From the IMG/VR virus record IMGVR_UViG_3300022936_000002, positions 1 to 54,142 of that record: a stretch of DNA of 54,142 nucleotides; one strand, written 5' to 3'. The translations under genes and the position numbers were made by a program. The DNA is from a virus. Taxonomy: Duplodnaviria; Caudoviricetes. Shown one piece after another: positions 23,874-49,406 of this stretch. The notes under the pieces are model-generated. The model did not search any database. It was not told the DNA's origin and saw only the letters and a program-made list of their open reading frames with translations. Positions within the stretch are counted from its first letter, which is position 1; each line of letters starts with the position of its first letter.

Positions 23874-23945
23874 TATTTAGGAGCGGGTCTTATCGCTCGC
23901 CTCGGTCGCTCGTCTGCTCAATTTGCGCCTCTCAAGGCGCTCACC
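23874..23945 (+). repeat. Dispersed ~70-bp cassette-end-like element
   Basis: TATTTAGGAGC..GCGCC-TCTCAA-GGCGC-TCACC. Confidence 0.7.
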
Positions 23946-24158
23946 TCAGTTCTGCGCCTGCTCGCCCTTCCGTCGCCAGTACGGATTGACCATCGAAAAA
24001 TAATGCTGAAATGACGAATGTTCCGGGCAGAAATACGTGACGTTCCCGCGATAATTAAACGCCTCTTTTTCTTTTCCGCAGTGGCCGCAGACCGTTTGGC
24101 GCATAAACGCTTCGGCCTCGTTCTCTGCTGTTGCTTGTTTACTTAAGTTTCTCGCCAT
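23946..24158 (-). CDS. Small Zn-finger hypothetical protein
   Basis: CGHC..CPEH; GGAG RBS. Confidence 0.55.
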   Translation of the reverse strand: MARNLSKQATAENEAEAFMRQTVCGHCGKEKEAFNYRGNVTYFCPEHSSFQHYFSMVNPYWRRKGEQAQN

Positions 24159-25078
24159 TCTCCCTCTCGCCTCCTACAAAACGTCGGCGTCTAAAATATC
24201 CAGATCATCGTGCGGTATGGTCATCACAGCTTCACCCGTATCCGAATTTACCAGTGATACACTGATTTGAAGTGATGGGTATTTAGCCGCCAAATTTGCG
24301 AGCTTTACCGTAAATTCTTCGTCTTCTTTTGAAGGTGCCATAGTTTCCCTCTCGTCTCTTTTTAACCGAGTAACCATAAAGGCCAGCAAAATATCCAGAA
24401 TATCCGCTCTTTATGCGTGAACGGTTCCTTTATCCACCGTGCCTCTTCGTGCTGTTTTCTCGCCTCCCCTGATATGCAAAGACCGAAAAACAAATAACCC
24501 ATAATCGCCACGCTCAATAAGATGGTATTGCCCATATTCTCCTTTTTATGTACCGCCGGGAATTCTCGACCAAGACAACCCCGGCGGCACGGCACAACGC
24601 TGTATCGTTGCCTCTCTCTGGCTTTCCAGAAGTGAATTGAGGAAGGGGCTCACGGCTGCTGTCCTGTCGGGGTGCCGTTGCTCATCCTTACGGGGTAGAG
24701 CCTTCCTCAAACTTGTTAAACTTTTTTAATTGGCTATTGAAATATTCCTGCTCTTCTTTCGAGTAGGTTCGCTCAGCGATAACCTTGCCGCCGACCGCAG
24801 TTTTTCTCGTCACAGTTCCATCGGCGTTCGCTTCGAAGGAAAAGGTGCGAACGGACTCTCCTTCTTTTGAATGGCCGTCCCGTATCAATCGAATTTTTAG
24901 CCACATTAGAGCGATAACGTATAGCCCGATCAATAAGGTGATTGTGATTAATGCGTTTCGTGCTTCTTGGTTCATCTTCTCTCTCCAAATATCCCCTCTA
25001 TCATCCTGTACGCCAGTTCCGGCATCATCGGTAAGCAGGCGATGAAAAGTAAAAGTAATATGGCGGGGGTGTGGTTCA

Positions 25079-26059
25079 TTATTTTTGGTATTTTGTCTCG
25101 GGTTCCTCGCCGATCTCTGCCACAAGTTCTGCTCTTAAATCTCTCCGCATTAGCGATGTCGGTATCGTCTCGCCGTCCAGTACGGTCTTGTCGGTTGTAA
25201 GTACGGGGCTGTTTCGGGTCGGGTCCGATTTCAGGTGCATCGCCTCGGTGACGAACGCCCAGACCTTCTCGCGGTTGGAGATAATCAATTTGCCGAATTG
25301 CCACAGAGCAATGCCGAGGATCGCGCCCAGTACGAACTTCGCCCAATCGGGAATGCCTGAAACCCACGCCGTGACATTTGCAAGGCTTATCCCGCCGACA
25401 ATACGCAGCCAAAGACTTTTATCCTTGGCGGCATCGGGGATGTACTGGATAAACGGCTTATCTTCGACCGGAGGCGTTATATCTCCAGTATTGATGATCT
25501 GGTCAGCGTTTTGTTCCAATGGAGTTGCGCCTGCCTCGGGGGTCTCGTCAGAAGATTCGGGCAAGATTTCTGCGGGAGTATTTGCGGTTGCTGCGGGGGC
25601 AGGCGCGGAGATTTTTACGGTTTCTTTGACCGCTTTATCGAAGCCCAGGCTCCACGGCTTTGTCGAGTCGTAGAGTTTCGGGTCAGAGTTAACCGAGATA
25701 TGCGCGTGATGGTCGTGCGGGTTCTTTCCGGTGTACGGCTTCCACCTTTGGAGGTCGCTTCCCGCCACGGTTATACGCTTTTCGTAAATGATGTACTTTA
25801 CCCGCGGGTCTTTGCTTGCGCGGATCGCGGACACGATAGCTTCGATAGAATGAATGTTGCTTGCCAGATCCTCGTCGATGTCGATCGCCGTCACTACTCC
25901 CACGCCGTGCTTATCCTTTACCCACGGATTATGGTCCGAGTTTCGAGAGGCGTGCGCGGCGTCGCCTATGCCGCCGTCACTCGACTTGTCGCGGTTGGGA
26001 TATTGCTCATTTATTTGAGCGCGTAATTGTTTGAGCGATTCTGCGATTCTCCAAGCCAT
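25079..26059 (-). CDS. Endolysin-like peptidase with C-terminal transmembrane segments
   Basis: DGGIGDAAH..SDHNP..AIDID..YTGKNPHDHHAHISV Zn-peptidase motifs, Pro/Ala linker, two hydrophobic helices. Confidence 0.75.
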   Translation of the reverse strand: MAWRIAESLKQLRAQINEQYPNRDKSSDGGIGDAAHASRNSDHNPWVKDKHGVGVVTAIDIDEDLASNIHSIEAIVSAIRASKDPRVKYIIYEKRITVAGSDLQRWKPYTGKNPHDHHAHISVNSDPKLYDSTKPWSLGFDKAVKETVKISAPAPAATANTPAEILPESSDETPEAGATPLEQNADQIINTGDITPPVEDKPFIQYIPDAAKDKSLWLRIVGGISLANVTAWVSGIPDWAKFVLGAILGIALWQFGKLIISNREKVWAFVTEAMHLKSDPTRNSPVLTTDKTVLDGETIPTSLMRRDLRAELVAEIGEEPETKYQK

Positions 26060-26234
26060 AATGTTGATTCCAATAAAAAAGACACCAAACGATCCCCTTC
26101 GGTTTTGAAGGTTCTCGCAAGGTGCCGTGGTCTTGCACGCGCCTTCCATCTTCTCTAGGGGGCGCATCAGCGAACTGAATTAATTAATATAATATCGTTT
26201 TACACTATATAATGTCTATCAAATTTTCTCGGGC

Positions 26235-26624
26235 TCAATCCATTGTGCTTACCACTCCCGGAAACTTCGCGGTGGGACTTGGCAGGTAGTCGTCCGGTAT
26301 GTCAGAAAAACTAACTGCGTACACTTTGGCCTTTTGGTCATCGTCGAAACGGACGTTATAAATATTCCTTGCTTTTTTCAGCATCTCCCTGTACGAAATT
26401 GTCTGATTCTCGAATTGGCAATAGATCATATCGTCAACCACGGAATATAGGTAAACATCGACATCATTCAAATGCTCGACAAATGAACCTACAATCGTGG
26501 CGTTCTGCGAGTTCTTGCCAACGAAAAGTATGGGATAATCGTGATACAGAAGTTCCTCATAATCTTTAGCAATAAGCGCGGTCTTATGATCGGAAATGAG
26601 TTGGTTTTCAGCAGGAATCCACAT
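26235..26624 (-). CDS. Hypothetical protein (DUF6575-like), AT-rich moron
   Basis: YHDYPILF..IPDDYLP. Confidence 0.55.
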   Translation of the reverse strand: MWIPAENQLISDHKTALIAKDYEELLYHDYPILFVGKNSQNATIVGSFVEHLNDVDVYLYSVVDDMIYCQFENQTISYREMLKKARNIYNVRFDDDQKAKVYAVSFSDIPDDYLPSPTAKFPGVVSTMD

Positions 26625-26647
26625 AGCTTATTATCTCACAAAACCCT

Positions 26648-27212: not shown

Positions 27213-27593
27213 TTAGTTCCTCAACTCTCCCATCAGCGCCGCCGTCGGCAGGATCGCTTTCGTGGGTTCCTTGTAAAAGATCGCGGATGTGGTTTCGTCG
27301 TGCGTCTTTGCCCTGTTCGGGACGATCCTCGGTGCCGGTTCGCGGTAGAAGTATCGCTCCGGTATCTTTAGTTCGGGTATGATCCGGTCGGATAGCCACC
27401 TTAAAGCGGTGTAGGTCCATTCAATGCGCGTTTTCTTGCCCAGTGCTCTATGTATGTCGCCTATTGTCATTGAAGGCTTGCTGCGCTTGATTATGGTCTC
27501 TATCAGCTTGGCGTAGGCTTTGAAGTCCTTACGCTCGAAGATTGTTTCTGATATTTCTAGGTCGTGGTTCATTTTGTTGGGTATGTGTCCCAT
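27213..27593 (-). CDS. Hypothetical protein
   Basis: ATG at 27593 with GGAG RBS. Confidence 0.55.
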   Translation of the reverse strand: MGHIPNKMNHDLEISETIFERKDFKAYAKLIETIIKRSKPSMTIGDIHRALGKKTRIEWTYTALRWLSDRIIPELKIPERYFYREPAPRIVPNRAKTHDETTSAIFYKEPTKAILPTAALMGELRN

Positions 27594-27614
27594 AATTCTG
27601 TTTCTCCAAAGGGT

Positions 27615-27685
27615 GATGTCTGAGCTTGATCTACCGCTCGTCCGTCTCGCTAGACTTGGCGGATTTGGGCGTCTCAACGCCCTCC
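27615..27685 (+). repeat. Dispersed ~70-bp element (left of YopX gene)
   Basis: GATGTCTGAGCTTG..GGGCG-TCTCAA-CGCCC-TCC. Confidence 0.7.
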
Positions 27686-28116
27686 ACGGCGAGTAGTTCG
27701 GGGTTCGCAAAAATATTCCCCAATACTGTTGTGCCGGTCTGGTCGATCCAGTCCTGAGTTAGCCCACCTTGTAGCCCCTGCAGCCGATTTGCTGTACTGT
27801 CCGCCCAACGGAGCGCATACGACCCCCATTTGTCGTTCCATTCGACAATGCGAACATATTCGCGAGTACCGAGAATATCGCCCTCGTAGATCTCCACGCC
27901 GTTCTTGTCTATGATCCCCGTGAACTGCGTAATTTTGAATTGTTGAGCGAAATAAGGGTTCTGCGTCCAATCGATTTCGCCGCCTATAGGCTGTAAATCG
28001 GACGTAAACAATATCCAGTCATTACCCTCCCCGCCGCTCCTGATGAACTGGAACAGGTGGTGCATCACCTTTTTCCCCTCATCCCAACCTCTAAATTTTC
28101 TCAATATCTTTGTCAT
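27631..28116 (-). CDS. YopX-family protein
   Basis: KFRGWD..QFTGIIDKNGVEIYEGDIL..VLGNIFANPELL. Confidence 0.9.
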   Translation of the reverse strand: MTKILRKFRGWDEGKKVMHHLFQFIRSGGEGNDWILFTSDLQPIGGEIDWTQNPYFAQQFKITQFTGIIDKNGVEIYEGDILGTREYVRIVEWNDKWGSYALRWADSTANRLQGLQGGLTQDWIDQTGTTVLGNIFANPELLAVEGVETPKSAKSSETDER

Positions 28117-28130
28117 AACTTTTCTCCTAA

Positions 28131-28201
28131 GTAGAGCGGCTTGAAAGCCGCCCATCCGAACGATTAGCGGTCGAGGTGGATATGTCGATCGCTCTTGGAT
28201 G
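28131..28201 (-). repeat. Dispersed ~70-bp element (right of YopX gene)
   Basis: CATCCAAGAGC..GCGGC-TTTCAA-GCCGC-TCTAC. Confidence 0.7.
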
Positions 28202-28206
28202 CCCCT

Positions 28207-28485
28207 TTATCCGTCAGCTTCCGCTATCGCATAATCAGACAAATGCTTACACCGTTCGCACCCCTCCCCGGCTATACAGGGGGAAGATTCGGCGTGAGCG
28301 TTGATTGCTTGGGCTATGAATTGACCGATGTTATCAATCTCGGATTCAGGCGGTGAATCGTTGTTATAAACAAGGCTCGCTATCGATACCCCGTCTGCGG
28401 TTACGATGTACCCGAACTGATCGTCAAATCGTACCGGGTACTCTAAATCGGGTCGTTTCAGCCCGTCCCCTTTCTCGCTGTTCAT
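28207..28485 (-). CDS. Hypothetical protein
   Basis: AGGAG RBS; shares CERCKHL with the next gene. Confidence 0.6.
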   Translation of the reverse strand: MNSEKGDGLKRPDLEYPVRFDDQFGYIVTADGVSIASLVYNNDSPPESEIDNIGQFIAQAINAHAESSPCIAGEGCERCKHLSDYAIAEADG

Positions 28486-28509
28486 AAAAAATAATCTCCT
28501 TTTTCCTGT

Positions 28510-28579
28510 CATTTCAGAGCGGGTCAATCGCTAATCTCGGTGCGCCACGGTTCGGGTGGGCCGATCTCAATCGGCTCCC
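28510..28579 (+). repeat. Dispersed ~70-bp element
   Basis: CATTTCAGAGC..GCCGA-TCTCAA-TCGGC-TCCC. Confidence 0.75.
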
Positions 28580-28585
28580 GTGCGG

Positions 28586-28936
28586 TTAAAACGGTGTCTT
28601 CTGTGCGTCTCGGAGTTCGTCATCGTCCAGATGTTTGCATCTTTCACAGTTCTCGGCGTTCAGCTTCGCGACGACGAGATTGCACCATTGCTCCTGCGTA
28701 TCGATCGCCTGTTCGTCTGGAACTTTCGAAGAGGTTAGCGCTCCCCACCCGCGCACTTGGAATAACATCTTTCCGTCGGCATCGTGAATCGTCTGTCCGT
28801 CCGTAGAAACCGGCAAAACTATTTCGAGCACCCTTTGACGCCAGCTTACGCACGTATCGTTCGGCTCCGGTGCGTCAGTTTTAATCTCCATCATTCTCGG
28901 CTTCGTGCCTGCTACTGCTAGTTTTTTACTCATCAT
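28586..28936 (-). CDS. Hypothetical protein
   Basis: AGGAG RBS; QVRGWG motif; CERCKHL. Confidence 0.6.
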   Translation of the reverse strand: MMSKKLAVAGTKPRMMEIKTDAPEPNDTCVSWRQRVLEIVLPVSTDGQTIHDADGKMLFQVRGWGALTSSKVPDEQAIDTQEQWCNLVVAKLNAENCERCKHLDDDELRDAQKTPF

Positions 28937-28946
28937 TTCTCTCCTG

Positions 28947-29011
28947 TTGGCGGCTCCCCAGAGCCGGAATCCGATACTCGTCCTACGACCGCGCTTCGCG
29001 GCTCCTCATTT
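28947..29011 (-). repeat. Dispersed ~65-bp element
   Basis: AAATGAGGAGC..CGGCTC-TGGG-GAGCCG. Confidence 0.55.
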
Positions 29012-29746
29012 CCCTAAATCTTCCGTTTTCTGCTCCTCCACTCCTACTAGGTGGCGGGCGAGATTTAGCGGCACGTTTAAGGGCGTCTCTGCTAGATACA
29101 CGTCTACGCTATCTGAATACCAATGTCCTATACCTCTTTCATCCACGATCCGCCATCCGTTTCGCTCAGGGCGGCCTAACCGAATGCCTTCAACTCCGTC
29201 CTTGTCTTTCATCAGAAGCCACCGCAGACTGTGGTTTTCACGATTGATCGGCAACCACTTCGCTTCTTTCACCCGTTCCTCGGCTAGGGCAAGGGCTTGG
29301 CGGAGGCGGGCGGTTTCGGCGAGTAACTTTGGAATGTCATCGAGACTTGCGCCGATGACTAGATCGGGGTCGTGGTCGGGACGCGCGGGAATTGACATTT
29401 CCCACTCACGCGATTCTTTGCTACCTTTTCGAGCGCATAAGGCCGTCACCAATTTGCACGCATTTTCGTAGCGGCGGATAACGTCTTTGCTCTTGACCGT
29501 TTCGGGCTCACGGGCAGGACAGACCGATTGATTCCAAGCCTTTATCGAGAGAATATCGGCTATGTAGCCGCCTACCTCAAATTCGCAGTCGTGGCATTTC
29601 ACGAACCACTGCCCCATTCTGTCCACGCGGTTATCATCTCGTCGCCGATATACCTCGACGTTCTGGCTTCCACATTTGCAATCCGCCATTACGGGCGCCT
29701 CCCCCGCGTCCGCTACGGTGTGTGTGCTAGTTGTTTCGTTGGTCAT
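29006..29746 (-). CDS. Mosaic hypothetical protein with Lar-like Zn domain
   Basis: CKCGS..WFVKCHDC..KAWN. Confidence 0.55.
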   Translation of the reverse strand: MTNETTSTHTVADAGEAPVMADCKCGSQNVEVYRRRDDNRVDRMGQWFVKCHDCEFEVGGYIADILSIKAWNQSVCPAREPETVKSKDVIRRYENACKLVTALCARKGSKESREWEMSIPARPDHDPDLVIGASLDDIPKLLAETARLRQALALAEERVKEAKWLPINRENHSLRWLLMKDKDGVEGIRLGRPERNGWRIVDERGIGHWYSDSVDVYLAETPLNVPLNLARHLVGVEEQKTEDLGK

Positions 29747-30006
29747 AATTTTGTGCCTCCGTCTTTCCAGTCGATTTGATCTGGCTGAATATCCGCGCAT
29801 TCGTCGCAGACCCACGTCACTTCATCGTCTATTTTCGTTCTTTCGGCAATTTCGCCGTTCGTTATAAAACAACCGCAAAGCTGGCATTCGTTATCCCATC
29901 TACTGCCCGTCGGTTCGTGCTTTTGAATCGTCGTATGCGTCTGCGTTTCGATTTGTTCGCTCATTTTTTGTATTAAGTACTCCTCCCGAAAAACGGGGTT
30001 TAGGAT

Positions 30007-30076
30007 TATGCCGGAGCGGATCAACCGCTAGGGGCGGGGGCTTAGGTCCGGATGGGCGGTCTGGTGACCGCTCCCC
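30007..30076 (+). repeat. Dispersed ~70-bp element
   Basis: TATGCCGGAGC..GCGGTC-TGGT-GACCGC-TCCCC. Confidence 0.7.
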
Positions 30077-30297
30077 TTGTTACCGCGCAGCGCCTGAGCA
30101 ACAAGCAATTTCACGAGTTCCTGTATCGCCTGTTCCTCGGTTTCGCAGTTATTGACCATCAGCCCTGCATCTGCCATTTCGTCGAAACTTTGCGTCGCGT
30201 TCCCATCCGGGCAGGGATAAGCGAACCATCCGCCCTCGTCGGAACAACAATTTGTGTGAATGTATTTTTCGTATTTCGATAATCTAAACTTGCTCAT
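30028..30297 (-). CDS. Hypothetical protein
   Basis: GGGAG RBS; lies between an inverted pair of elements. Confidence 0.55.
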   Translation of the reverse strand: MSKFRLSKYEKYIHTNCCSDEGGWFAYPCPDGNATQSFDEMADAGLMVNNCETEEQAIQELVKLLVAQALRGNKGSGHQTAHPDLSPRP

Positions 30298-30308
30298 TTC
30301 CGTCTCCC

Positions 30309-30377
30309 GTAGACGCCCTTGAGAGGGCGCATCTGCTTACTCGTCGTCCGTCGTAGGCTGGCTCAAGCTCTGAAATG
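30309..30377 (-). repeat. Dispersed ~70-bp element
   Basis: CATTTCAGAGCTTGAGC..ACGGACGACGAG..CGCCC-TCTCAA-GGGCG-TCTAC; first 17 nt identical to 48108-48124. Confidence 0.8.
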
Positions 30378-30896
30378 ACCTGAAACCGCGCTCGCCTTCC
30401 TTGTCTCTGGGGTGGAGAAGGGCACGGGCACTGTAGAATCTTTCAGGTAAAGCGGATGCCACGGCTCTTTCGATCCCATTTTCAGCATGTGAACATCGAG
30501 GCCGGTTAATATCTCCCGTACCTGTTTCGACCGCTCCAAGTGCGTACCGTGCTGACTCCACGCCGCTACGACCAGGGCCGCGTTATGAGCGATATTGTGA
30601 ATGTAGTAGTCGTTGCTTTCGCCGATCGGCTCCGCCTGCCGTTTCATCTCTTTTGGATCCGTGGCGCGGTAAGCGAAGATATTCGTTGCGCACATCGCGT
30701 CATATCCCCAGGCTTTGGCGAACTTGATGCACTTGCGCATCGTCGGGTCGTCGTTCGTCTCGTCCGCGGTCGAAGGATTGAGGCATATGAAATTCACGTA
30801 CCGGCCGCCGTCGGACCAGTTACGCCAAAGCGTGTAGCGGTATTTGCGGCAGGCCGAAAAGTCGGCGGTTCGCATTATCATTTGAGAAAGTGCCAT
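30363..30896 (-). CDS. DUF1643 domain protein
   Basis: YRYTLWR..LNPSTAD..DDPT..NIFAYRATDP..HPLY. Confidence 0.9.
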   Translation of the reverse strand: MALSQMIMRTADFSACRKYRYTLWRNWSDGGRYVNFICLNPSTADETNDDPTMRKCIKFAKAWGYDAMCATNIFAYRATDPKEMKRQAEPIGESNDYYIHNIAHNAALVVAAWSQHGTHLERSKQVREILTGLDVHMLKMGSKEPWHPLYLKDSTVPVPFSTPETRKASAVSGHFRA

Positions 30897-31164: not shown

Positions 31165-31929
31165 CTAGTAAGGGTTTTCATAAGCGTATTTCCACGCCCC
31201 GGTTAGAATCTTTTGCGCCCGGCGCCATACCTCGTTATCAGGATCGGAGAATAACTCACGGCCGACATCGTTTCTCGCTCGCACAAGGATCTCGGGTGCG
31301 GTCTCCGGTATCGAAAGGCGGTCTGGTTTCTTACTCACCGTCTGCTCGAGCGCGCGGAGAACTTCGGTCGGCTTTGGATCGTAACCGCCGTTTTTCTCGA
31401 TCCACCGCGCACGGGCTGCGTCATGTGCTTTCGGCCGGCAAAAGCGGCAAGGAAGTCTGATCAACTCGGACGGGTTTTTGAAGTTAACGATATCGACCTC
31501 TCCGTCGTCGGTGACGTGCTCGCCTTTCTTTTCGCAAAACTGTGTAGGATTCGCCTTGCGCTCTTCCTGGTCGGCCGCGGCCGCTCTCTCGCGATCTTCG
31601 GACCTGATCTTTTCCCACGCCGCTTTTATCTCGTAAGCGTTAACCGGGAAAACGCTTTCGTGCTCCGCAAAGGCGCGATCGAACGCGTCCTGCAGCCGGT
31701 GGGCCGGTATCAGCCCGAACAGCACCCGCGCCCAAATATCCGCACGCGCCGCCTTGTCCGCCAGCGAAGCGTTTTGGGAAGAGAGCGAGAAGGAATCACT
31801 CACGATTAACAACATTCTCTCTCTGAACTCGGTCTCGTTCTGCGATACTCGCTCTAAGCTGCTCGAGCTTCCGGTGCTCATCGATGACCTGCTCATCCCG
31901 TTGTTGGCGATAGTTATTGCTCTTTCCAT
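31165..31929 (-). CDS. Replication-associated protein (possible helicase loader)
   Basis: Overlaps 3' end of the initiator gene; PCRFC Zn motif. Confidence 0.5.
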   Translation of the reverse strand: MERAITIANNGMSRSSMSTGSSSSLERVSQNETEFRERMLLIVSDSFSLSSQNASLADKAARADIWARVLFGLIPAHRLQDAFDRAFAEHESVFPVNAYEIKAAWEKIRSEDRERAAAADQEERKANPTQFCEKKGEHVTDDGEVDIVNFKNPSELIRLPCRFCRPKAHDAARARWIEKNGGYDPKPTEVLRALEQTVSKKPDRLSIPETAPEILVRARNDVGRELFSDPDNEVWRRAQKILTGAWKYAYENPY

Positions 31930-32617
31930 TTGCGTTTCCGTTTTTCCTGTTTTTCAGCGTGCCGATTAAAAATTCGTCCGGGTTGACCGGGTTAGCGGCC
32001 TGGGTAGCGGCGATGCACTCGCCTAAAAGCTCGCGGCCGTACTCTTTCCCGAGCTTGCCGAGAAGCGACCGGGCGGAATGGTCCGCAATGCCCCCGGATT
32101 TGAGAAGGTCGAGCCCGTCCGTCCAGATTCGTCGAGAAACCGGATCGACCACTTTCGACGGTGCAGCCGTCTGCGTAGCAGGTTCTTCTCTTTTCTTGTT
32201 CTCTTCTCTAGTTCCCTTATCCTTATAGGCAGTCGAGTTTCCGACTGGGGAGTCGAGATCCTGACTCTGTATCCTGACTGCCGACTGTGCAGTCGAGTTT
32301 CCGACTTCCGACTGGGGGTTTTCAGCGCCCTTTTCGGCCTGTAACTGACCGATAATCTCCGCAAATGTTTTCAGGACGCGGATAGAAAAAGCGTACTTTT
32401 CTTCTATCCAACCTCTCAATTTGAGCTTCTGCCTGGCCTCACATACACCGCTGCGCGAGCGCCCGATCTTCTCGGCCACTTCTTCATCTGGACAGTGCCA
32501 GCGGCCGTTCTCGTTACCCGTAGAGGAGACGTAGTACAAAAACACGTCTTTCTCCGCCGGGGTGAGTTTCTCGGCGTTAGCAACCTTTATAAATTTGCGA
32601 AGTTCAATAAAATTCAT
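31796..32617 (-). CDS. Phage replication initiator (winged HTH)
   Basis: LTPAEK..EVAEKIGRSRSGVCEARQKLKLRGWI; repeated VGNSTA linker. Confidence 0.7.
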   Translation of the reverse strand: MNFIELRKFIKVANAEKLTPAEKDVFLYYVSSTGNENGRWHCPDEEVAEKIGRSRSGVCEARQKLKLRGWIEEKYAFSIRVLKTFAEIIGQLQAEKGAENPQSEVGNSTAQSAVRIQSQDLDSPVGNSTAYKDKGTREENKKREEPATQTAAPSKVVDPVSRRIWTDGLDLLKSGGIADHSARSLLGKLGKEYGRELLGECIAATQAANPVNPDEFLIGTLKNRKNGNANGKSNNYRQQRDEQVIDEHRKLEQLRASIAERDRVQRENVVNRE

Positions 32618-32622
32618 TGATT

Positions 32623-33297
32623 TTAGGAGATGTATTTCCCCTCTTCCGCGACGTAGTTTGCTGAAATATACTCGAGATCCTCTGCTGACAAATCGAACCA
32701 TTCGCCTCGAACCCGCTTGTCCGCATAAACTCGATGCAGCATCCGCTCTTTATGAGGAATATCGGGCCATACCCAGACGATTACGAAGTTGTTAGGTGTG
32801 GGTAAAAGAGTGTCCTGTTTGACGAGTTGCCGCAGTCTCGCCTCCGGGTCGTTGCTACGTCCGATTTTGTGGTAGCCGGTATCCTGGTCGCGGATAATAT
32901 AAATGTTCGTAAAGGCGGAGAGGCGGGCTTCGACAATCTGCCGCTCGCGAGCATTGAGCGGTACCTGGAGAAGCTGTTCGATCGCCCATTTCGAGTAAGG
33001 GAATCCCTGCTCCCCGATAACGGTTAACGCATAGTAGATTAAGATTAGCGTGTAAAACTCGTCGTAAGCCTTGTCGATAATAAGCAGATCGTCAGGCGAG
33101 CATCTCGTCACGGCCGCATCCAAGCCGATCCCCTCTATCCCGCCGGAAACGAGAGAATATACTGGCACAAAAAATATATGTTTTTCTCCACCCAACGCCT
33201 TCGGGTCCGGTATCGCGACATAGAACTCGAGTGCGGTGTCCGGGTTCGTGCCGCGGCCCGCGTGAAGTCTTCCGTTAAATAAGCTGTAATATTCCAT
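32623..33297 (-). CDS. GIY-YIG (T5orf172/Mug113-like) nuclease-domain protein
   Basis: IYII..HKIGRSNDPEARL..ERMLH..RVRGEWF. Confidence 0.85.
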   Translation of the reverse strand: MEYYSLFNGRLHAGRGTNPDTALEFYVAIPDPKALGGEKHIFFVPVYSLVSGGIEGIGLDAAVTRCSPDDLLIIDKAYDEFYTLILIYYALTVIGEQGFPYSKWAIEQLLQVPLNARERQIVEARLSAFTNIYIIRDQDTGYHKIGRSNDPEARLRQLVKQDTLLPTPNNFVIVWVWPDIPHKERMLHRVYADKRVRGEWFDLSAEDLEYISANYVAEEGKYIS

Positions 33298-35391: not shown

Positions 35392-35396
35392 GACAT

Positions 35397-35465
35397 TGGG
35401 ACGGCCCTAGCCGTCGAACTGGAGCGACGAGCGATCGTGATAAGCGAGGCTCAAGCTCCTGGATT
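35397..35465 (-). repeat. Dispersed ~70-bp element
   Basis: AATCCAGGAGCTTGAGC..GACGGC-TAGG-GCCGTC-CC. Confidence 0.7.
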
Positions 35466-36255
35466 AATTCTTTTTGTAAAGGTTGAGAAAAAATACCGCC
35501 ACTATCCCTAGTAGTAATCCGAATGTGTGTTTGTTCATTTGATCCTCAAGACTTTGAAAATAAAGAAAATTACTCTCTGCATATTGCTTGGTAAGTAGTG
35601 CTTCATACCGATTCGATCTCCATCCTTCGTTTAGCGGCGTATTCTCGCCAATATCTTGTCCGTCCGGTTTCCGTTGCTCGTTTAGCCGCCTTCTTTTTCT
35701 CCGCCGCGATCTTGCGCTTCTGGTTGTAGTTCGGCTTCGTATTCCACCGAAACAGGCAATGCAGCGACTGTTCGTCACAGACCTTCAAGATGCACTGGGT
35801 ACAAATTAGGTCGAGTTGATCATTCTTCATCGTCATTACCGAGTGCGGCCTTCAGCGATTCGATTTGAGTCCGCTTTTTATCTGCTTCTTCCTCAAGCGC
35901 GAATATCTTGTCCTCGATGTGTTCCACGTCGCCTTCAAGACGCTCTATGCGCGATTCCAAGGTTTTCTTAACCAGCCGTTCTTTCGCCTGAATGTAGTCG
36001 TCAAGGCTCGTAAACGTCGGTCGGTATGTGACGGAATGTCTGCAACCAGTCCCGACAGATCACTACTAAAGACGGTCGGATACGTGTTCTGGATATGTTG
36101 TGCTACTGCCTTCTGTGCAAAGTTCATCTCGTTTCTCCGCAGCCTTAAGCTGCCCTTTTAGCGTGCCGTAAAGACCGATCTGGACCACTGCCGCGCCCTT
36201 TACTTCTTCGAGCTGTTCCTTAATATCGAGAGTGGTCATAGAATCCGGTTTAGGT

Positions 36256-36326
36256 TCATTAAGAGCTTGTTTCATCGCCCGCCTGTATCGACGAGTTTTG
36301 GATGGGCGGCTCTCAAGCCGCTCTAC
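36256..36326 (+). repeat. Dispersed ~70-bp element
   Basis: TCATTAAGAGCTTG..GGATGG-GCGGC-TCTCAA-GCCGC-TCTAC; 3' 27 nt differ at one base from the 28131-28201 copy. Confidence 0.75.
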
Positions 36327-36679
36327 CATTTCGATCCCCACTGATAAGGCTGTACGGCTAATCCGGTAATAACTTCCATAATCTCCATCGCCTGGATTTT
36401 CTCGCACGCAGCTTGCGCCTCTTCGTGGGTAAACATATCTTCTTCATCGTCGGAATCGTGTCCGAAAAAGTAATTGGGCGTGCCCTGCCTATCATTCGGA
36501 AACTCATCAAAATCAAGCACTACCTCAAACCCGAAGAGCTTTTCGATTTCGCGCTGCTCCTCGCTGGTAAAAGCGCGTTTTGTGCACATAGCTACTTCCG
36601 CCATATTCGCTCCGGTGACGCGCTTGAGAGCGCGAATCTCGATAGACTGGCGAGCGTCGTGGTCATCTCGAACGCTCAT
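36323..36679 (-). CDS. Hypothetical protein
   Basis: 118-aa ORF with GAGG RBS. Confidence 0.55.
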   Translation of the reverse strand: MSVRDDHDARQSIEIRALKRVTGANMAEVAMCTKRAFTSEEQREIEKLFGFEVVLDFDEFPNDRQGTPNYFFGHDSDDEEDMFTHEEAQAACEKIQAMEIMEVITGLAVQPYQWGSKW

Positions 36680-36840
36680 AAATAACTTTCCCTCTCTAAA
36701 ATTCGACCGCCTTAGTTACCCCGGCGGTCAGCACTTCAAGTGTCAAGAGGAGGACTGTTTTCAAATATTGCCCCCGACAGAGAAGACGGCTTCCATGACC
36801 TACAACGCTGCCGGGGGTCTTCGGGGCTTAGCCCGGAAGG

Positions 36841-39297: not shown

Positions 39298-39537
39298 TTA
39301 TTTGTTCTCCCGGTTGAGTTCGTCTATGAGAGCGTCGGCGGTCTTAATCGCATATTCAGCGAGTAGGCTGTCCGGCTCGGTGGCGAGCGATGAGTTTGCG
39401 CAATAGCCCTGCATCGCCAGTCCTGCGAAGTATTCCCGTTTAGTTAGCGGCGTGTTCGGCACATTGCTAATCGTGTCGTGTCCGCTTATAAAATCGTTTC
39501 CATCTGTTTTCACATCTATTCCTCCGTAACTGTCCAA
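39298..39537 (-). CDS. Conserved phage hypothetical protein
   Basis: LTKREYFAGLAMQG..ADALI motif. Confidence 0.75.
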   Translation of the reverse strand: MDSYGGIDVKTDGNDFISGHDTISNVPNTPLTKREYFAGLAMQGYCANSSLATEPDSLLAEYAIKTADALIDELNRENK

Positions 39538-40130
39538 ACTTTTTTACCGTCCGTGCCTACCTCGTCCAGATTTATCGGATAGGGCCGCGGGTCTTGGAAC
39601 GTAACGTCGAAGTGCATGAAGCGCGGTCGCTTTGATTGAGCGTCCAGTTCCTGGATCTCGTCGGCACATTCGATCAGTAGTTCCTTTATTGCTCTGTCGT
39701 CCATATCTACCGCTCTGAACATCCGCTTAATGAAGCGTTCTATTAACCTCTCGGCTCTCCGTCGTCCGCGCTTGTCTATCGCGAAGTGGCAATTCCTGCC
39801 TGCCGGTAACACTCTGAATATCGACCACCAGTCCTCAATATTTATTTCGGGCCTGCGCTTCGAGTGAGCGCGGTCGATATCCCCGCAATAGTTCCGTCCG
39901 TAGCAGACGTGACAGGTGCGCTCGATCCCCGATTTGATAAAGAACAGCTCCAGTACCTGATTCATAAACAGGTTGAGCACGCCCCGCTTCCCTACCTGCC
40001 TCAACCCCTTCCGCTTCTTCTCCACGACCTTCTCTGCGCGATTGTTGGTGTAGCGGCACGGCAGCTTTACCGTTCTATCGTTCCGGTACTTGTCCGAGGT
40101 CGGGCGTTCCTTTGTGCGGGTGCGAATCAT
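39516..40130 (-). CDS. Hypothetical protein, HNH/NinG-like
   Basis: CHVC..DRAHSKRR..RNCH. Confidence 0.5.
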   Translation of the reverse strand: MIRTRTKERPTSDKYRNDRTVKLPCRYTNNRAEKVVEKKRKGLRQVGKRGVLNLFMNQVLELFFIKSGIERTCHVCYGRNYCGDIDRAHSKRRPEINIEDWWSIFRVLPAGRNCHFAIDKRGRRRAERLIERFIKRMFRAVDMDDRAIKELLIECADEIQELDAQSKRPRFMHFDVTFQDPRPYPINLDEVGTDGKKVWTVTEE

Positions 40131-40347
40131 CGTAAATGCGCTCTCCGAATATCTTCGTGCTGTAAAGGCTTGCCGCTTATCTTTCCGCCGTAAGCGTTCC
40201 GACGGGTTCCGCATAAGTCGCCCGAATCGTGAGTGCAGCGGCAGTGCTTACAGTCAACCCGGTAGTAGTCGGCGCAAACATCATCTCGGTCGTGAATCCA
40301 TCCGCAAAACCGGCATCGCTTGGAATTGTTCGCCATAATCCCCTCCC

Positions 40348-43066: not shown

Positions 43067-43139
43067 AAATTTCTCCTAATATTGGCTGAGAAGCGATACA
43101 AAATGGTATCCGTAATACTTTAACAGAAGGTTGTCTCCT

Positions 43140-44540: not shown

Positions 44541-44547
44541 GAATATT

Positions 44548-45006: not shown

Positions 45007-45016
45007 GAGTAAAACA

Positions 45017-45154: not shown

Positions 45155-45279
45155 ATTCAGAGATCGAAACAATACGCCGTCATAACGAACGGTTCAATAG
45201 ACGAATGGCGTCGAGGCTCGGCGCTATTTTCGTTGGTGCCGTGGCGTTAGCATGGTATTTGATGGAGTGGCGGTTTTAA
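45151..45279 (+). CDS. 42-aa membrane peptide
   Basis: ATGA overlap with the previous gene; LGAIFVGAVALAWYLM transmembrane-like segment. Confidence 0.5.
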   Translation: MNSEIETIRRHNERFNRRMASRLGAIFVGAVALAWYLMEWRF

Positions 45280-45292
45280 GCGAGATTAAATT

Positions 45293-46132
45293 ATGAAGAA
45301 GTCTATACAGGTCCAAGGAAAAACGATCAATGTTATCCCGCACGGCGAGGCTGACTATATCTGTCTGACGGATATGGTTAAGAGCTTCAAGGGCGGGGAT
45401 CAGCTTATAAAGAATTGGCTGCAAAACAAAAACACCCTCGAATACTTAGGGATTTGGGAGGAATTAAACAATCCAGATTTTAAAATGGTGGAATTCCACC
45501 TAATTAGAACTGAGGCCGGATCTAATAAATTTCTCCTATCCGCCAAGCAATGGACGGAGCGGACGGGCGCGATCGGACTAGAGGCACGGGCCGGCCGCTA
45601 TGGTGGCACGTATGCGCATAAGGACATCGCTCTCGAGTTCGCATCGTGGCTCTCGCCGGCGTTTCGATTGTATGTAATAAAAGAGTTCCAGCGTCTTAAG
45701 GAAGAAGAGACGAAGGGGCGTCAGCCCGGGTGGGACATTAACCGCACACTGGCTAAGGTGAATTACCGTCTGCACACGGATGCCGTTAAAAAACGGTTAG
45801 TGCCGCCGACCGTCACAGCTAAACAGGCCGGTTTTATATATGCCAATGAGGCAGATGTTATTAACGTCGCGGTATTCGGTCAAACGTCCAAGGAATGGCG
45901 AGACGCCAACGCAGCACTCCCCGGCAATATCCGCGACCACGCGTCCGTCGAGCAGCTCTTGGTGCTCGCAAACATTGAGAGCTATAACGCTATACTGATC
46001 GATCAAGGCGTGTCGCAAGCTGCCCGCATACAAGAACTGAATAAGCGCGCCAGGTCTAACTTCAAGTCGCTTACTAGCACGCCGTCGGTAAAGGCCCTAA
46101 AACCGCCTCCATTGCTCCGCTTGAAGGAATAA
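45293..46132 (+). CDS. KilA-N domain protein
   Basis: YICLTDM..GRYGGTYAHKDIALEFASWLSP. Confidence 0.92.
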   Translation: MKKSIQVQGKTINVIPHGEADYICLTDMVKSFKGGDQLIKNWLQNKNTLEYLGIWEELNNPDFKMVEFHLIRTEAGSNKFLLSAKQWTERTGAIGLEARAGRYGGTYAHKDIALEFASWLSPAFRLYVIKEFQRLKEEETKGRQPGWDINRTLAKVNYRLHTDAVKKRLVPPTVTAKQAGFIYANEADVINVAVFGQTSKEWRDANAALPGNIRDHASVEQLLVLANIESYNAILIDQGVSQAARIQELNKRARSNFKSLTSTPSVKALKPPPLLRLKE

Positions 46133-46202
46133 GGGATGGCTCCCCAGAGCCGAAACTGGGACGACGGGCGAGCGTGGCTAATATCTCGAACGCTCATAAA
46201 TC
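46133..46202 (-). repeat. Dispersed ~70-bp element
   Basis: GATTTATGAGC..GGCTC-TGGG-GAGCC-ATCCC. Confidence 0.65.
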
Positions 46203-46366
46203 ATCTTGCAAAAGTCTTCAAAATAGTGTAGATTTAGACCATCTAATCATTCAAATAATCAAACTCCCTAAAAACCTAATCTAGAAAAAGTTTTAACTTT
46301 CTTCAAAGGCCCGTTATGTCTATCAAACGACAGAAGCGGGCTTTTTCGCGTCTGCGGAGTAAGGAT

Positions 46367-46435
46367 TATTTCGGAGCGTGAATTATCGCTAACCACGGTG
46401 CTCACGTTCTCAGTCCGCCGCCAGTGGGCGGGCTC
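46367..46435 (+). repeat. Dispersed ~70-bp element (left of HD gene)
   Basis: TATTTCGGAGC..ATCGCTAACCACGGTGC..CCGCC/GGCGG hairpin; resembles the 28510 copy. Confidence 0.7.
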
Positions 46436-46449
46436 AACGGGGGAGATTA

Positions 46450-47100
46450 ATGATTACACAATCGGGAGTTCATATTCAGAAACAAGGCGGTGAAACGGGC
46501 ACGCCGACCGCCGAGGATATTGCTGTCCATATGGGTCGTATTTGTCGCTATGGCGGGGCTGTCTGGTACACGCTCTTGCCGCACTCTATATTCGTCGGGC
46601 TAATGGCGTACAGGCGTTCCGGTGACGTGCAAAACCTTGTCTGGGGCTTGCTCCACGATGCGCACGAAGTGGTCACGAGCGACGTGCCGCGTCCGTTCAA
46701 ATGCCAGTGTATGAAAGACGAGCAAACTTTCATCGACCAACGTATATATGAGAAGTTTTGCCTGCACGAAACCTTTCCGACGCCGATCAATATGGCGCTC
46801 ATAAAACAGTGCGATAAAGACGCGCTTCACATCGAGGCCGCCGAATTACGGTTGCCGGGCTTTGCCGAGATCGAACTGAAATACGCGAAAGACTACCTAA
46901 ACGAAACCGAGATTTATAACGGCGACGAGGATAGATATTTATTTCAGCGGATCAAAAACAGCGTCTTTCACAAAAACACAATTTACGGGATGGAATCGGC
47001 GGGTGTTCGGATGTTCGCCGAAGTCTTACGAGAAGCGGAAAAGGGTAACTACCGATTAGCGAAAAGAATCGTTGATGGATGGGGATTGCTCGACGGCTAA
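46450..47100 (+). CDS. HD-domain phosphohydrolase (YfbR-like)
   Basis: DIAVHMGRICRYGG..HS..LLHDAHE..DVPRPFK. Confidence 0.85.
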   Translation: MITQSGVHIQKQGGETGTPTAEDIAVHMGRICRYGGAVWYTLLPHSIFVGLMAYRRSGDVQNLVWGLLHDAHEVVTSDVPRPFKCQCMKDEQTFIDQRIYEKFCLHETFPTPINMALIKQCDKDALHIEAAELRLPGFAEIELKYAKDYLNETEIYNGDEDRYLFQRIKNSVFHKNTIYGMESAGVRMFAEVLREAEKGNYRLAKRIVDGWGLLDG

Positions 47101-47103
47101 CAA

Positions 47104-47171
47104 GGGAGGCGCGATAGCGTCAGGCTGAGCACGTCGCCCCCGAGACAAGCGATAGGCCAAGCTCCGAAATG
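47104..47171 (-). repeat. Dispersed ~70-bp element (right of HD gene)
   Basis: CATTTCGGAGCTTGG..TATCGCT..GCTCAG..TCCC; imperfect hairpin. Confidence 0.7.
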
Positions 47172-47210
47172 ATCCTAAACCGGCCCCCGGCAGGAAGAGA
47201 GAAACAAAGT

Positions 47211-47645
47211 ATGGAAAACGAATCATCATTACCCGATACATTTGAAGCGCCGGCCGGAGTGATCTGGACGGTACAAAAAGGCGAGTACGCTAGCACGAAT
47301 GTTAAGACAACGTATATTCGGGTGGATAGAAGCGTATATGGATGGCGCTACATCTGCGTCGCGTTGAACGTCTTTGAAGATTTGCTTACCGCCAAAACAA
47401 TGGAAGCCGCCGCCCTCGAAGCCTTCGACCTGTGCCACAAGAAAGCATCGGATCTGTGTGCCGCATTTGCCGAGGCAAGAACTCAGACACCACTTCCCGC
47501 CGCTCTGACGGAACCGCCGGACGATGATCCTGAATCTCACGCCTGCAGTGGGTGCCAGACTCCGTGCGGATGCTCGAACGGCGTTTGTATGGGGTGTGGA
47601 GATTGTCAGGATCGAGGGGATTGGGGGTATAGACCGAAGAGGTAA
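47211..47645 (+). CDS. Hypothetical protein with Cys-rich C-terminus
   Basis: CSGC..CGC..CMGCGDC. Confidence 0.5.
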   Translation: MENESSLPDTFEAPAGVIWTVQKGEYASTNVKTTYIRVDRSVYGWRYICVALNVFEDLLTAKTMEAAALEAFDLCHKKASDLCAAFAEARTQTPLPAALTEPPDDDPESHACSGCQTPCGCSNGVCMGCGDCQDRGDWGYRPKR

Positions 47646-47648
47646 TTT

Positions 47649-48104
47649 ATGCACGACGTACATTTTTCAAGTGAGACGGTCGAGTGGGCGACGCCTCAGT
47701 ATCTTTTCGACGAGCTGAATAGAGAGTTCGGCTTTACCCTCGATCCGTGTGCAACGCCTGAAAATGCGAAGTGCGACAAGTTTTACACGATCCACGATGA
47801 CGGACTGGTACAGGACTGGTCGGGCGAAACAGTTTACGTTAATCCGCCTTACGGACGAAAGACTGGAGATTGGATTGAGAAGGCTATCGTCGAATCGAGA
47901 AAAGGATCCACGGTCGTCTGTCTGATACCGGCTAAGACCGAAACGCGGTGGTGGGCAAGGTTCTGGGATTACGAACGGCACAGACCTGTCCACGGTGTCC
48001 AAGTGAGATTCATTTTCAAGCGGGTAAAGTTCGGCGAATCAAAGATCAATGCGCCTTTCCCCTGCGCGGTAGTTATTTTTCGGGGGAAGGAATCGAAGAG
48101 GTAG
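47649..48104 (+). CDS. Phage N6-adenine DNA methyltransferase (Dam family)
   Basis: EWATPQ..FTLDPCA..DDGL..VNPPY. Confidence 0.92.
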   Translation: MHDVHFSSETVEWATPQYLFDELNREFGFTLDPCATPENAKCDKFYTIHDDGLVQDWSGETVYVNPPYGRKTGDWIEKAIVESRKGSTVVCLIPAKTETRWWARFWDYERHRPVHGVQVRFIFKRVKFGESKINAPFPCAVVIFRGKESKR

Positions 48105-48107
48105 GAA

Positions 48108-48178
48108 CATTTCAGAGCTTGAGCAATCGCTCAGCACGGACGACGAGGGAGCAACTGGCGCGTTGGTACGCGCTCTAC
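48108..48178 (+). repeat. Dispersed ~70-bp element (left of SPFH gene)
   Basis: CATTTCAGAGCTTGAGC..ACGGACGACGAG..GCGCGT-TGGT-ACGCGC-TCTAC. Confidence 0.8.
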
Positions 48179-48194
48179 AAAACCAAAGGAGAAT

Positions 48195-48989
48195 ATGAAA
48201 AATAAACTATTACTTTTAACAATTATCGGAATGAGTTTTTTAATGACCGGATGTTGGCAGACCGCCAAGGAAGGCACGGTTGAGATTCAAACGATCTGGG
48301 ACAAAATGACCAAGATTATCCGTGCATCCGACGGCGGCGTTTCGTCCTGGAGTACGATTGGCGACGATTACTACACCGTCTCGCTTTTGTCGCAAACCAC
48401 GGAAGCCGACGTGCAGGCGTCGTCGAAGGATAACGCAGGACTCTCTATCAAAATCGCGGTCACGTACCATCTGAAAAATTCGGATGAGGCAATAGAAAAC
48501 CACGTTCGGAAGTTCGGCCTTGTAGAGAAAACCCGCAACGAGCAGTTTTCCCGCGTCCTTGTCGGACAACTTAATACCGAGACAAAGAACGCTATTGCCG
48601 AATACGACGCGTATGGCATTCTCGCGAATCAAGAAGCTATTCAATCTCGAATATCGGAGAAAATGAAGCCGATACTCGAAACGCAGCTCGGACAGGAAAT
48701 CGAATCTATCCAGATAATCGGACGGCCGGATTTTGTCGATGATCGAATCGAACAGGCCGCGTCACAGGTTGTTGCTAATCAGAAACTCAAGCAAGCCGCC
48801 GAAGCCGGACTGGAGGCGTCGAAGGTTAATGCTCAACAGAAACAGGTCGAGGCCGCGACTTATGCGAACCCCGCGCTGTTAGAGATTCGCAAACTCGAAT
48901 TACAGGTGGAGATAGCCCGCGAATGGCGGCAGCATTCTGGCACGCTCGTATTCGGCGGGAACAGTCCTGTAATGGTGGGAGATAAATAG
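48195..48989 (+). CDS. SPFH/band-7 domain lipoprotein
   Basis: Lipobox MTGC; ASSKDNAGLSIKIAVTY; C-terminal Ala/Gln/Glu coiled coil. Confidence 0.75.
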   Translation: MKNKLLLLTIIGMSFLMTGCWQTAKEGTVEIQTIWDKMTKIIRASDGGVSSWSTIGDDYYTVSLLSQTTEADVQASSKDNAGLSIKIAVTYHLKNSDEAIENHVRKFGLVEKTRNEQFSRVLVGQLNTETKNAIAEYDAYGILANQEAIQSRISEKMKPILETQLGQEIESIQIIGRPDFVDDRIEQAASQVVANQKLKQAAEAGLEASKVNAQQKQVEAATYANPALLEIRKLELQVEIAREWRQHSGTLVFGGNSPVMVGDK

Positions 48990-49335
48990 TATGGGCAAGA
49001 TTGTATTGTTCTGGCTCATTGGAGTACTTAGCCTTGTAATCCTTTTCGGCGGGGGTGGGTACTACTTTTTCTGGCTATTCCGAAAAGGCAAAAAGGAGAA
49101 ATTATGGTAGAAGAAACCGACGATATTCACACTACGCTCGAGACTGAGCCGGAAACAAAGGTAATGGATGTGACCGACAAGGACGAGGCGACGGACTGCA
49201 TTCCGAACTCATTTACCGGCTCGATCTACGACAAGAAACCGGCGGCAGGAGAAGCTGATGGTGAAGCCGGTCAAGCGGTAGCATAAAGGCAAGGAGGCGG
49301 GAGGCGTCTAAAACGGCGTCTCCATTCTCTACGAG

Positions 49336-49406
49336 CGGAGCCGTCACCAGACGGCAAACTGAGCAGATTAGCGAGCGTCGTGGTCATCTCAGGGCGCTCA
49401 GAAATG
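49336..49406 (-). repeat. Dispersed ~70-bp element
   Basis: CATTTCTGAGC..GCTCAGTTT-GCCGTC-TGGT-GACGGC-TCCG. Confidence 0.75.

Follow-up and report, generated by a model that had tools for sequence, protein, structure and literature searches.

The window analysed here is the full 54,142 nt of the IMG/VR virus record IMGVR_UViG_3300022936_000002 (Duplodnaviria; Caudoviricetes), the genome of a temperate, siphovirus-like phage with two divergent early/accessory operons. This genome carries 15 dispersed copies of an element of approximately 78 nt, which combines an asymmetric 5' box with a short hairpin whose stem varies in sequence but stays paired. The copies are located at gene boundaries, close neighbours are without exception inverted relative to each other, and the conserved parts follow the frame of the element instead of that of the mRNA. 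We tentatively interpret the elements as recombination or insertion sites that are recognised as folded DNA and that bound accessory modules, a reading that we favour with considerable reserve.

An initial annotation of this sequence had listed 14 copies, described by the consensus YATTTCRGAGC followed by a hairpin. By itself this 11-mer is weakly above chance, with 10 matches at up to one mismatch compared to 4.15 +/- 2.08 in shuffled sequences, and the case for a family rests on a model of the whole element and not on the 11-mer. A covariance model, R1, was built from the aligned copies, and the whole window was scanned on both strands with filters off. This yielded 15 full-length matches with E values from 3e-20 to 1.7e-12 and scores of 48.0-74.7 bits; beyond these, no match exceeded 9.9 bits. 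All 14 listed copies were recovered and a fifteenth was added, copy 10 in the numbering from left to right used here (36612-36688 on the minus strand), which repeat finding also placed in a repeat family, D7. The 15 copies are all confined to 23870-49410, in the non-structural half of the genome; R1 detected no copy in 1-23869 and 49411-54142, and the structural genes hold none, in line with the earlier remark that the head/tail operon is devoid of them. Pairwise identity between the copies ranges from 45 to 69%, with a mean of 58.6% compared to 49.5% for shuffled sequences, thus the copies are either old or derived from diverse sources.

The element consists of four parts: a 5' box, a semi-conserved middle, a hairpin and a tail. 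The 5' box of ~20-25 nt contains ..TTTAGGATYATTTCRGAGC, best seen as (C)GGTTTAGGATYATTTCRGAGC, and its GAGC is nearly invariant. The middle comprises about 38 semi-conserved bases, with a range of 34-41, occurs in two mid-region types, and ends in a CAGTTT-like or a CGGATGG-like motif, whereas the tail is TC-rich with the pattern TC(T/C)(A/C)C. The hairpin is formed by a 6-bp stem and a 4-nt loop (16 nt), and 86 of the 90 pair cells are Watson-Crick paired. All six stem pairs covary: 36 cells have changed on both sides compared to 13.0 +/- 2.5 in shuffles, a number reached by none of 500 shuffles, while there are no cells that have changed on one side only and no G.U pairs among the 86 paired cells. 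When, as a control, the partners were slid by 1-3 columns, only 36-50% of the cells were paired. The mostly 16-nt hairpin with a free but paired stem that had been described before is upheld, but its 6-nt TCTCAA loop is in reality a 4-nt loop. The loops fall into two classes, YTCA in 7 copies and TRGK in 6, with two odd ones. For mid-region type, pre-hairpin motif and loop class, all four pairwise combinations occur among the copies, which fits exchange between copies, and independent recurrence of such short motifs could also account for it.

Other features of the element were considered as well. The complement of the tail reads GTAGA at the foot of the hairpin in 4 of the 15 copies, and is GNRGA-like in most others. 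Of the 5 copies with AGAGC in the 5' box, 4 have the tail TCTAC, which none of the 10 others has (Fisher ~0.004), and since these copies are somewhat more alike overall, the association is explained by shared ancestry. A helix closing the element by pairing of RGAGC with GCTCY was rejected (70.7% paired versus 67.0 +/- 2.7 in shuffles, a value reached by 62 of 500), and single-copy folds gave no common long hairpin. By eye, a possible first hairpin GAGCG..CGCTC can be recognised in ~11 of the 15 copies, and it lies beyond covariation testing because its arms are conserved in sequence. A coding role was rejected, since 1-nt indels between the copies break any common frame (by eye) and the stem covaries. 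The complement of the 5' box, (C/A)GCTCYGAAATGA, has a resemblance to boxA/nut sites, and this reading was dropped because the mixed orientation of the copies argues against it.

The copies fill intergenic spacers of 63-317 nt, and other intergenic gaps of similar size in the structural and early regions contain no copy. Relative to the surrounding operon, 7 copies are sense and 8 antisense. In sense copies the hairpin ends 8-15 nt upstream of the next ribosome-binding site (RBS), and in antisense copies it comes directly after the upstream stop codon. Four open reading frames (ORFs) run 19-59 nt into an element. The longest of these overlaps is that of the YopX ORF, which extends 59 nt into copy 2 and stops inside it; the Pfam match of YopX ends at residue 155 of this 174-aa ORF, at the border of copy 2. 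The ORF 30028..30297 runs 51 nt into copy 6. The junctions between genes and elements are abrupt, and removal of an element would leave an ordinary spacer of stop codon, RBS and start codon. Between the genes enclosed by elements and their neighbours there is no difference in GC content, overall or at third codon positions (GC3). With respect to the likely replication origin (iterons at 32229-32306), 4 plus and 3 minus copies are located to the left, and 3 plus and 5 minus copies to the right, hence there is no strand bias.

Along the genome, the orientations of the copies are + + - + - + - - + - - + - + -. All 11 neighbouring pairs separated by gaps of 156-1152 nt are inverted, and the three pairs separated by 3663, 5011 and 9441 nt are all direct. 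Under random orientation, 11 out of 11 inverted pairs would have a probability of 2^-11 = 0.0005, a post-hoc figure as the test was chosen after seeing the data. The alternation noted in the initial annotation is retained for 11 of the 14 neighbour pairs, but is interrupted at 36612(-) and 46130(-), which have the same orientation once copy 10 is counted. The five accessory regions that had been described as enclosed by inward-facing hairpins were found again, and the pair 36252+/36612- makes a sixth. The most economical description of the layout is six pairs, with the 5' boxes outward and the hairpins inward, and three solo copies; the opposite pairing, with the hairpins outward, results in five pairs and five solo copies.

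In the minus-strand operon, the solo copy 1 (23870..23947, +; 74.7 bits) is antisense to local (-) transcription, has the loop CTCA and the tail TCACC, and is placed between the gene 23946..24158(-) and the one that follows it downstream. Module 1 (27611..28205) contains the YopX gene 27631..28116(-) and is delimited on the left by copy 2 (27611..27689, +; 61.2 bits; antisense), in which the YopX ORF ends, and on the right by copy 3 (28129..28205, -; 58.1 bits; sense), whose hairpin is located just upstream of the YopX RBS. Module 2 (28506..29024) holds the ORF 28586..28936(-), with no family assignment, and runs from copy 4 (28506..28582, +; 58.6 bits; antisense) to copy 5 (28944..29024, -; 48.0 bits; sense), the most divergent copy, in whose 5' box the ORF 29006.. 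stops. In module 3 (30003..30381), the ORF 30028..30297(-), again with no family, lies between copy 6 (30003..30078, +; 58.9 bits; antisense) and copy 7 (30307..30381, -; 57.3 bits; sense), and a DUF1643 gene stops in the 5' box of the latter. The solo copy 8 (35393..35469, -; 55.7 bits) is sense. Module 4 (36252..36688) extends from copy 9 (36252..36328, +; 58.9 bits; antisense) to the sense copy 10 (62.6 bits) and carries a small ORF with no family within 36323..36679(-), which likely starts after the element.

In the plus-strand operon, the solo copy 11 (46130..46206, -; 59.9 bits) comes directly after the KilA-N gene and is antisense to local (+) transcription. Module 5 (46363..47175) carries a gene for an HD-type deoxyribonucleoside 5'-monophosphate phosphatase-like protein (46450..47100(+); phrog_318, E 3.9e-17) between copy 12 (46363..46440, +; 56.5 bits; sense) and copy 13 (47099..47175, -; 50.3 bits; antisense), which has the weakest hairpin; together these two copies constitute an inverted repeat, I1, of 60 nt with 72% complementarity. 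Module 6 (48104..49410) comprises an SPFH/Band 7 gene (48195..48989(+)) and a 60-aa ORF (49104..49286(+)), flanked by copy 14 (48104..48180, +; 66.6 bits; sense) on the left and copy 15 (49333..49410, -; 56.2 bits; antisense) on the right. In the annotation, which covered 40 ORFs against Pfam, 20 against PHROGs and 10 against NCBIfam, no Pfam or PHROG family was found for 4 of the 7 enclosed genes. The sole similarity between the adjacent genes 28207..28485 and 28586..28936, each followed by a copy of the element, is a C-terminal stretch of 17 residues (59% identity, E 6e-4), and judged from its sequence this CERCKHL-containing stretch probably represents paralogous zinc-ribbon ends.

The loop class, the 5' box and the tail are conserved in the element's own frame, in sense as well as in antisense copies, so selection does not follow the mRNA strand; on the mRNA, sense and antisense copies would show complementary, unrelated loops and boxes. 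Selection therefore most likely acts on DNA and not on mRNA. A complete lack of wobble pairs would be out of the ordinary in an RNA helix and agrees with a DNA hairpin, and the fact that loops are kept while stems change freely suggests that something reads the loop together with the shape, which on DNA would be a folded single strand. These observations bear on the possibility that the elements are RNA-level hairpins, which in either orientation would stabilise the polycistronic early mRNAs, provide processing sites or act as translational insulators, as for repetitive extragenic palindromic (REP) sequences. Such a function would agree with the presence of all 15 copies in transcribed spacers, with the hairpin after a stop codon (antisense) or before an RBS (sense), and with the covarying stem. 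Moreover, the two copies with an A.C mismatch, 46130- and 47099-, are both antisense, which turns the mismatch into a G.U pair on the mRNA strand, although two out of two is not significant. However, conservation of the loop classes and of the 25-nt 5' box follows the frame of the element and not that of the mRNA, and G.U pairs are missing from all 86 paired cells. There is no U-tract, and none of the 9 promoter-like and 12 terminator-like sites detected between 23500 and 37500, which are of the sigma-70 and intrinsic types, falls in an element. An Rfam cmscan of the whole window at E <= 1 returned nothing on any element. A role of the hairpin alone would also leave ~60 further homologous bases and the inverted close neighbours unexplained, and we consider an RNA-level function unlikely.

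Three other explanations operate at the DNA level. The elements might be selfish, resembling MITEs (miniature inverted-repeat transposable elements) or REPs, mobilised by a host enzyme and tolerating intergenic positions, in which case their association with accessory genes would be incidental and no genes would be shuffled. That they are discrete units in otherwise short spacers, in either orientation, that ORFs run into them, and that the phage has no cognate enzyme would all suit this explanation, as would the GTAGA at the hairpin foot in 4 of 15 copies, which recalls the GTAG plus palindrome of REPs as given in the excerpted text of PMC8266576. On the other hand, the divergence among the copies greatly exceeds that of active MITE or REP populations, the stem varies in sequence where REP families keep theirs, target-site duplications (TSDs) and a significant terminal inverted repeat are both missing, the pattern matches in 185,579 species genomes do not rise above chance level, and random insertion does not predict that 11 of 11 close neighbours are inverted, making a selfish element a rather improbable explanation. 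We give about as little credence to binding sites for a protein that recognises duplex DNA, either operators of a master regulator, like SPBRE/MrpR in SPbeta, or architectural sites, like bacterial interspersed mosaic elements (BIMEs) binding IHF or gyrase. The conserved ~20-25 bp 5' box and its restriction to the early/accessory half of a temperate phage would be expected of such sites, duplex-binding sites can work in either orientation, and the 15 intergenic positions resemble the ~9-10 SPBRE sites described in the available part of PMC10516654. Nevertheless, duplex recognition does not explain the compensatory changes in a hairpin ~40 nt away, the elements do not overlap promoter-like sites, and most copies are located within operons, with co-transcribed genes on either side, and some in ORF ends. 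Finally, in a shufflon-like system of multiple inversions, a tyrosine recombinase would flip the segments between inverted sites. The inverted sites at 0.16-1.15 kb from each other in runs of 3-6, and a tyrosine recombinase gene 0.7 kb beyond the last copy, bring such a system to mind, but the segments carry complete genes that are co-oriented with the operon, there is no alternative ORF on the other strand, and the copies have no long identical core in common, so that a shufflon is very improbable.

This brings us back to recombination or insertion sites, the reading that had been put forward in the initial annotation. It accommodates the homologous family, the DNA-level behaviour, the gene boundaries and the inversion of all 11 close pairs, whereas the shuffling of genes that was part of the original proposal is unproven. 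According to this model, the elements would be DNA-level, strand-asymmetric sites recognised by the 5' box and the short hairpin, whatever the stem sequence, and the hairpin would presumably fold when the DNA is single-stranded. Through insertion, or through recombination specific to a site or a structure, they would have arrived or been swapped at gene boundaries, and in both early operons they would at present delimit accessory modules of one or two genes. The inversion of close neighbours could have arisen in two ways: either the module behaves as a unit and the element is its terminal inverted repeat, or direct neighbours recombine and delete the intervening DNA, so that only inverted ones survive. 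A more specific version would be a phage-borne gene-cassette system with attC-like logic, in which shape-defined folded-DNA sites, based on an unrelated 78-nt asymmetric site and arranged as inverted pairs around single accessory genes, are served by the phage's divergent tyrosine recombinase or another structure-specific enzyme, but we regard this version as doubtful.

Several findings weigh against recombination or insertion sites. With 6 bp, the stem is too short for extrusion from a DNA duplex, which makes it necessary to assume single-stranded DNA. The partners of a pair are ~56% identical, compared to 58.6% overall, and thus no more alike than non-partners, and the enclosed genes are all co-oriented with their operon, which argues against frequent inversion. 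In the data at hand, one genome and contigs, no movement, inversion, excision or replacement event was observed. There was no TSD of at least 4 nt common to more than one copy at any tested boundary offset, and complementarity between the 5-nt ends of the element was not above that of shuffles. Pfam, PHROG and NCBIfam scans of the ORFs revealed no transposase, HUH nuclease, serine invertase or IntI-like gene, and nothing links any of the candidate enzymes discussed below to the elements. Furthermore, no relative that carries the elements was found, searches of IMG/VR, GTDB genomes, JGI metagenomes and GenBank phages confirmed no copy, and the family is known from one genome only.

The initial annotation had suggested looking for a co-occurring recombinase. 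The genome does encode a single tyrosine integrase, 50113..51237(-), located 0.7 kb beyond the last copy, but no transposase or dedicated recombinase could be linked to the elements. The integrase has Pfam matches to N-terminal domains only and a weak NCBIfam match to XerC (28.6 bits), with no match to PF00589 even at E <= 10 and no match in a PDB sequence search. By eye, the motifs ARPSE, RDFRH and RYSH are present where the catalytic Arg, HxxR and Tyr are expected, and the protein is classified as a divergent tyrosine recombinase. Candidates for an enzyme that acts on the elements are this divergent tyrosine recombinase, the Hjc-like resolvase and the T5orf172 and KilA-N proteins, and a host enzyme could also be involved. 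No Y1/HUH transposase, and no REP-associated tyrosine transposase (RAYT) gene, was present among the 40 phage ORFs scanned with Pfam. NCBIfam gave nothing for 9 of the 10 ORFs scanned, the tenth being the integrase with its XerC match. The two largest unassigned ORFs were also considered: atlas leads mark 52563..53852 with high confidence as tail-fibre-like and 25079..26167 with good confidence as M15-lysin-like. The PDB sequence search gave no match for the former and marginal matches only for the latter (E >= 0.28), and neither looks recombinase-like.

To find relatives, the proteins of the phage were compared with those of other viruses. TerL has relatives at one IMG/VR locus, at 34% identity, and in GenBank phages at up to 42%, the AAA_24 protein has 73 relatives in IMG/VR with at most 51% identity, and IMG/VR contains no close relatives of the SPFH and HD module proteins. 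R1 was run with default filters on 1.29 Mb around the 73 AAA_24 relatives and gave no match better than 13.4 bits. Megablast and blastn searches against GenBank phages returned matches to YopX coding sequence only and no element, and no element match was obtained in E. coli genomes. Exact-pattern scans found 6, 1 and 0 loci in IMG/VR, 7 in the 185,579 species genomes of GTDB, and 6 in JGI metagenomes. These are numbers expected by chance, and all rescored loci but one had R1 scores of at most 18.6 bits. Five of the six JGI loci were rescored; the sixth (L020) shares its length and match position with one already scored (L009). The exception, and best locus, L021 (28.8 bits), is embedded in long ORFs on a bacterial contig of high GC content and lacks the hairpin, and was rejected as a chance match inflated by the pattern. 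The main scan pattern fits only 5 of the 15 copies in the window, and near-identical records may have been missing from what was searched, so the scan was not exhaustive and does not prove absence. A word search of the open-access literature likewise gave no description of such an element, which is no proof of absence either.

A single DNA run is listed for this genome, from a leaf litter metagenome that may be the source sample and available as contigs only, and no RNA run is listed. One contig of 54,045 nt, with a depth of 15.9, spans 27500-47499 with no joint at any element. Because contigs drop rare variants, this unbroken contig argues neither for nor against recombination. Two contigs, each single and of low depth, lose their match at 36254, on the 5' outer edge of copy 9, and at 46175, within copy 11, and continue into unlike sequence. 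They may represent mosaic junctions of minor relatives in the sample, and we regard them as a lead only. Another contig, of depth 2, skips 65 nt (40029-40095) inside the gene 39516..40214, and may be a minor deletion variant or come from a different organism.

When compared with known systems, the elements do not appear to fit as a member of any of the PeSL, attC, REP/BIME, pdif and SPBRE families, and the likeness to pdif and attC is one of logic only. Integron attC sites, which provide the best known case of a DNA site with a covarying stem, consist of one long imperfect palindrome with R and L boxes, and are as a rule found in uniform orientation downstream of an ORF, beside attI, Pc and intI, whose integrase has a specific extra domain. 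They are the closest in logic, as both are shape-defined sites with little sequence conservation that go with a single accessory gene each, but the ends of our element do not pair above chance, its copies are 7 sense and 8 antisense, and no IntI-type gene was identified among the phage ORFs scanned. The pdif sites are 28-bp XerC/XerD sites that are not known to have a covarying hairpin, and inverted pdif sites bound accessory modules in Acinetobacter plasmids; the likeness here is that of small accessory-gene modules bounded by inverted, alternating sites. SPBRE, in the temperate phage SPbeta, resembles the elements in being a motif with dispersed intergenic copies, ~ten in number, and consists of a 15-bp duplex motif in promoters that is bound by MrpR, a protein with a tyrosine-recombinase fold (PMC10516654, available part). 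It differs in having no hairpin and no covariation, and alternation is not reported in that part of the source.

REPs are palindromes of 20-50 nt that are preceded by a conserved GTAG and linked to tnpA_REP (RAYT) (PMC8266576, in excerpt). REPs and BIMEs share with our elements that they are small extragenic hairpins in transcribed spacers, in both orientations, with, in BIMEs, an alternation of REP and inverted REP; a GTAG-like foot is seen in 4 of the 15 copies of the element. The REP palindrome is conserved, however, and is present in hundreds of copies per bacterial chromosome, whereas the elements are 78 nt long with a large non-palindromic part and a free stem, and occur in 15 copies on a phage that has no RAYT gene. 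Closest in biology are the PeSLs (promoter early stem-loops) of T4-type phages, described in the accessible sections of PMC2839356 (Arbiol et al. 2010) and PMC4122927 (Comeau et al. 2014) as composite intergenic stem-loop repeats that flank ORFans in a plastic region, and for which exchange has been shown. According to those of PMC2839356, they contain a strong sigma-70-like promoter and a working terminator and are co-oriented with transcription. PeSLs and our elements have in common that they are short intergenic stem-loop repeats in the accessory part of the genome, flanking ORFan or accessory genes. The elements differ in that they have no promoter- or terminator-like match, that their orientation alternates and that their stem covaries instead of being polyG/polyC, and exchange has been observed only for PeSLs. 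MITEs, finally, differ from the elements by their TSDs, terminal inverted repeats and near-identical copies.

To our knowledge, there is still little explanation of how phages gain and lose single accessory genes exactly at the borders of genes, apart from a few instances that include homing endonucleases and the PeSLs of T4-like phages. Hairpins that are conserved in shape and free in sequence, combined with asymmetric boxes and inverted close neighbours around ORFan-rich modules, are a concrete candidate for a boundary site, and one that can be tested. Recombination at the sites would imply a new cassette mechanism and a new signature by which exchangeable genes could be recognised in viral metagenomes, and if the cassette reading is true, a new class of cassette recombination site specific to viruses. 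Should the elements instead act as RNA or as operators, they would even so amount to a new structured regulatory motif. All of this currently rests on one genome.

As to the genome itself, IMG/VR carries it as a virus genome with direct terminal repeats, and it is rated 100% complete. Its terminal 127 bases (1-127 and 54016-54142) form an exact direct repeat. The Logan contig for this genome, of 54,045 nt, is circularly permuted, so the 127-nt repeat may be an assembly overlap and not a physical terminal redundancy. From the start of the window to ~42.0 kb the genes are encoded by the minus strand, between 42.2 and 50.1 kb by the plus strand, and beyond 50.1 kb, up to the end, by the minus strand once more. 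Annotated genes include those for KilA-N, Dam-like and C5 DNA methylases, YopX, DUF1643 proteins, a T5orf172/MUG113 protein, an Hjc-like resolvase, SSB, an AAA_24 (Sak4-like) ATPase and an O/DnaD-like initiator, and no tRNA or tmRNA genes were found in the window. Two tandem repeats lie inside the initiator gene (31796..32701), one at 32229-32306 with 3.9 copies of a 20-nt unit, GCAGTCGAGTTTCCGACTGT, the other at 32186-32218 with 2.5 copies of a 13-nt unit, and they are probably iterons of the replication origin. Near the integrase gene, between 51552..51944 and 52035..52358, there is a sub-threshold match to the SymR antitoxin RNA (Rfam symR; 51969-52040(-), 35.4 bits versus a gathering score of 61, E 0.005), which may be a small structured or antisense RNA or a chance match. 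In the tail region, a 10-nt tandem repeat, GCCTGACCAA (3.3 copies), makes up one arm of a 47-nt inverted repeat with 70% complementarity, whose arms at 8884-8931 and 11247-11293 are 2.3 kb apart.

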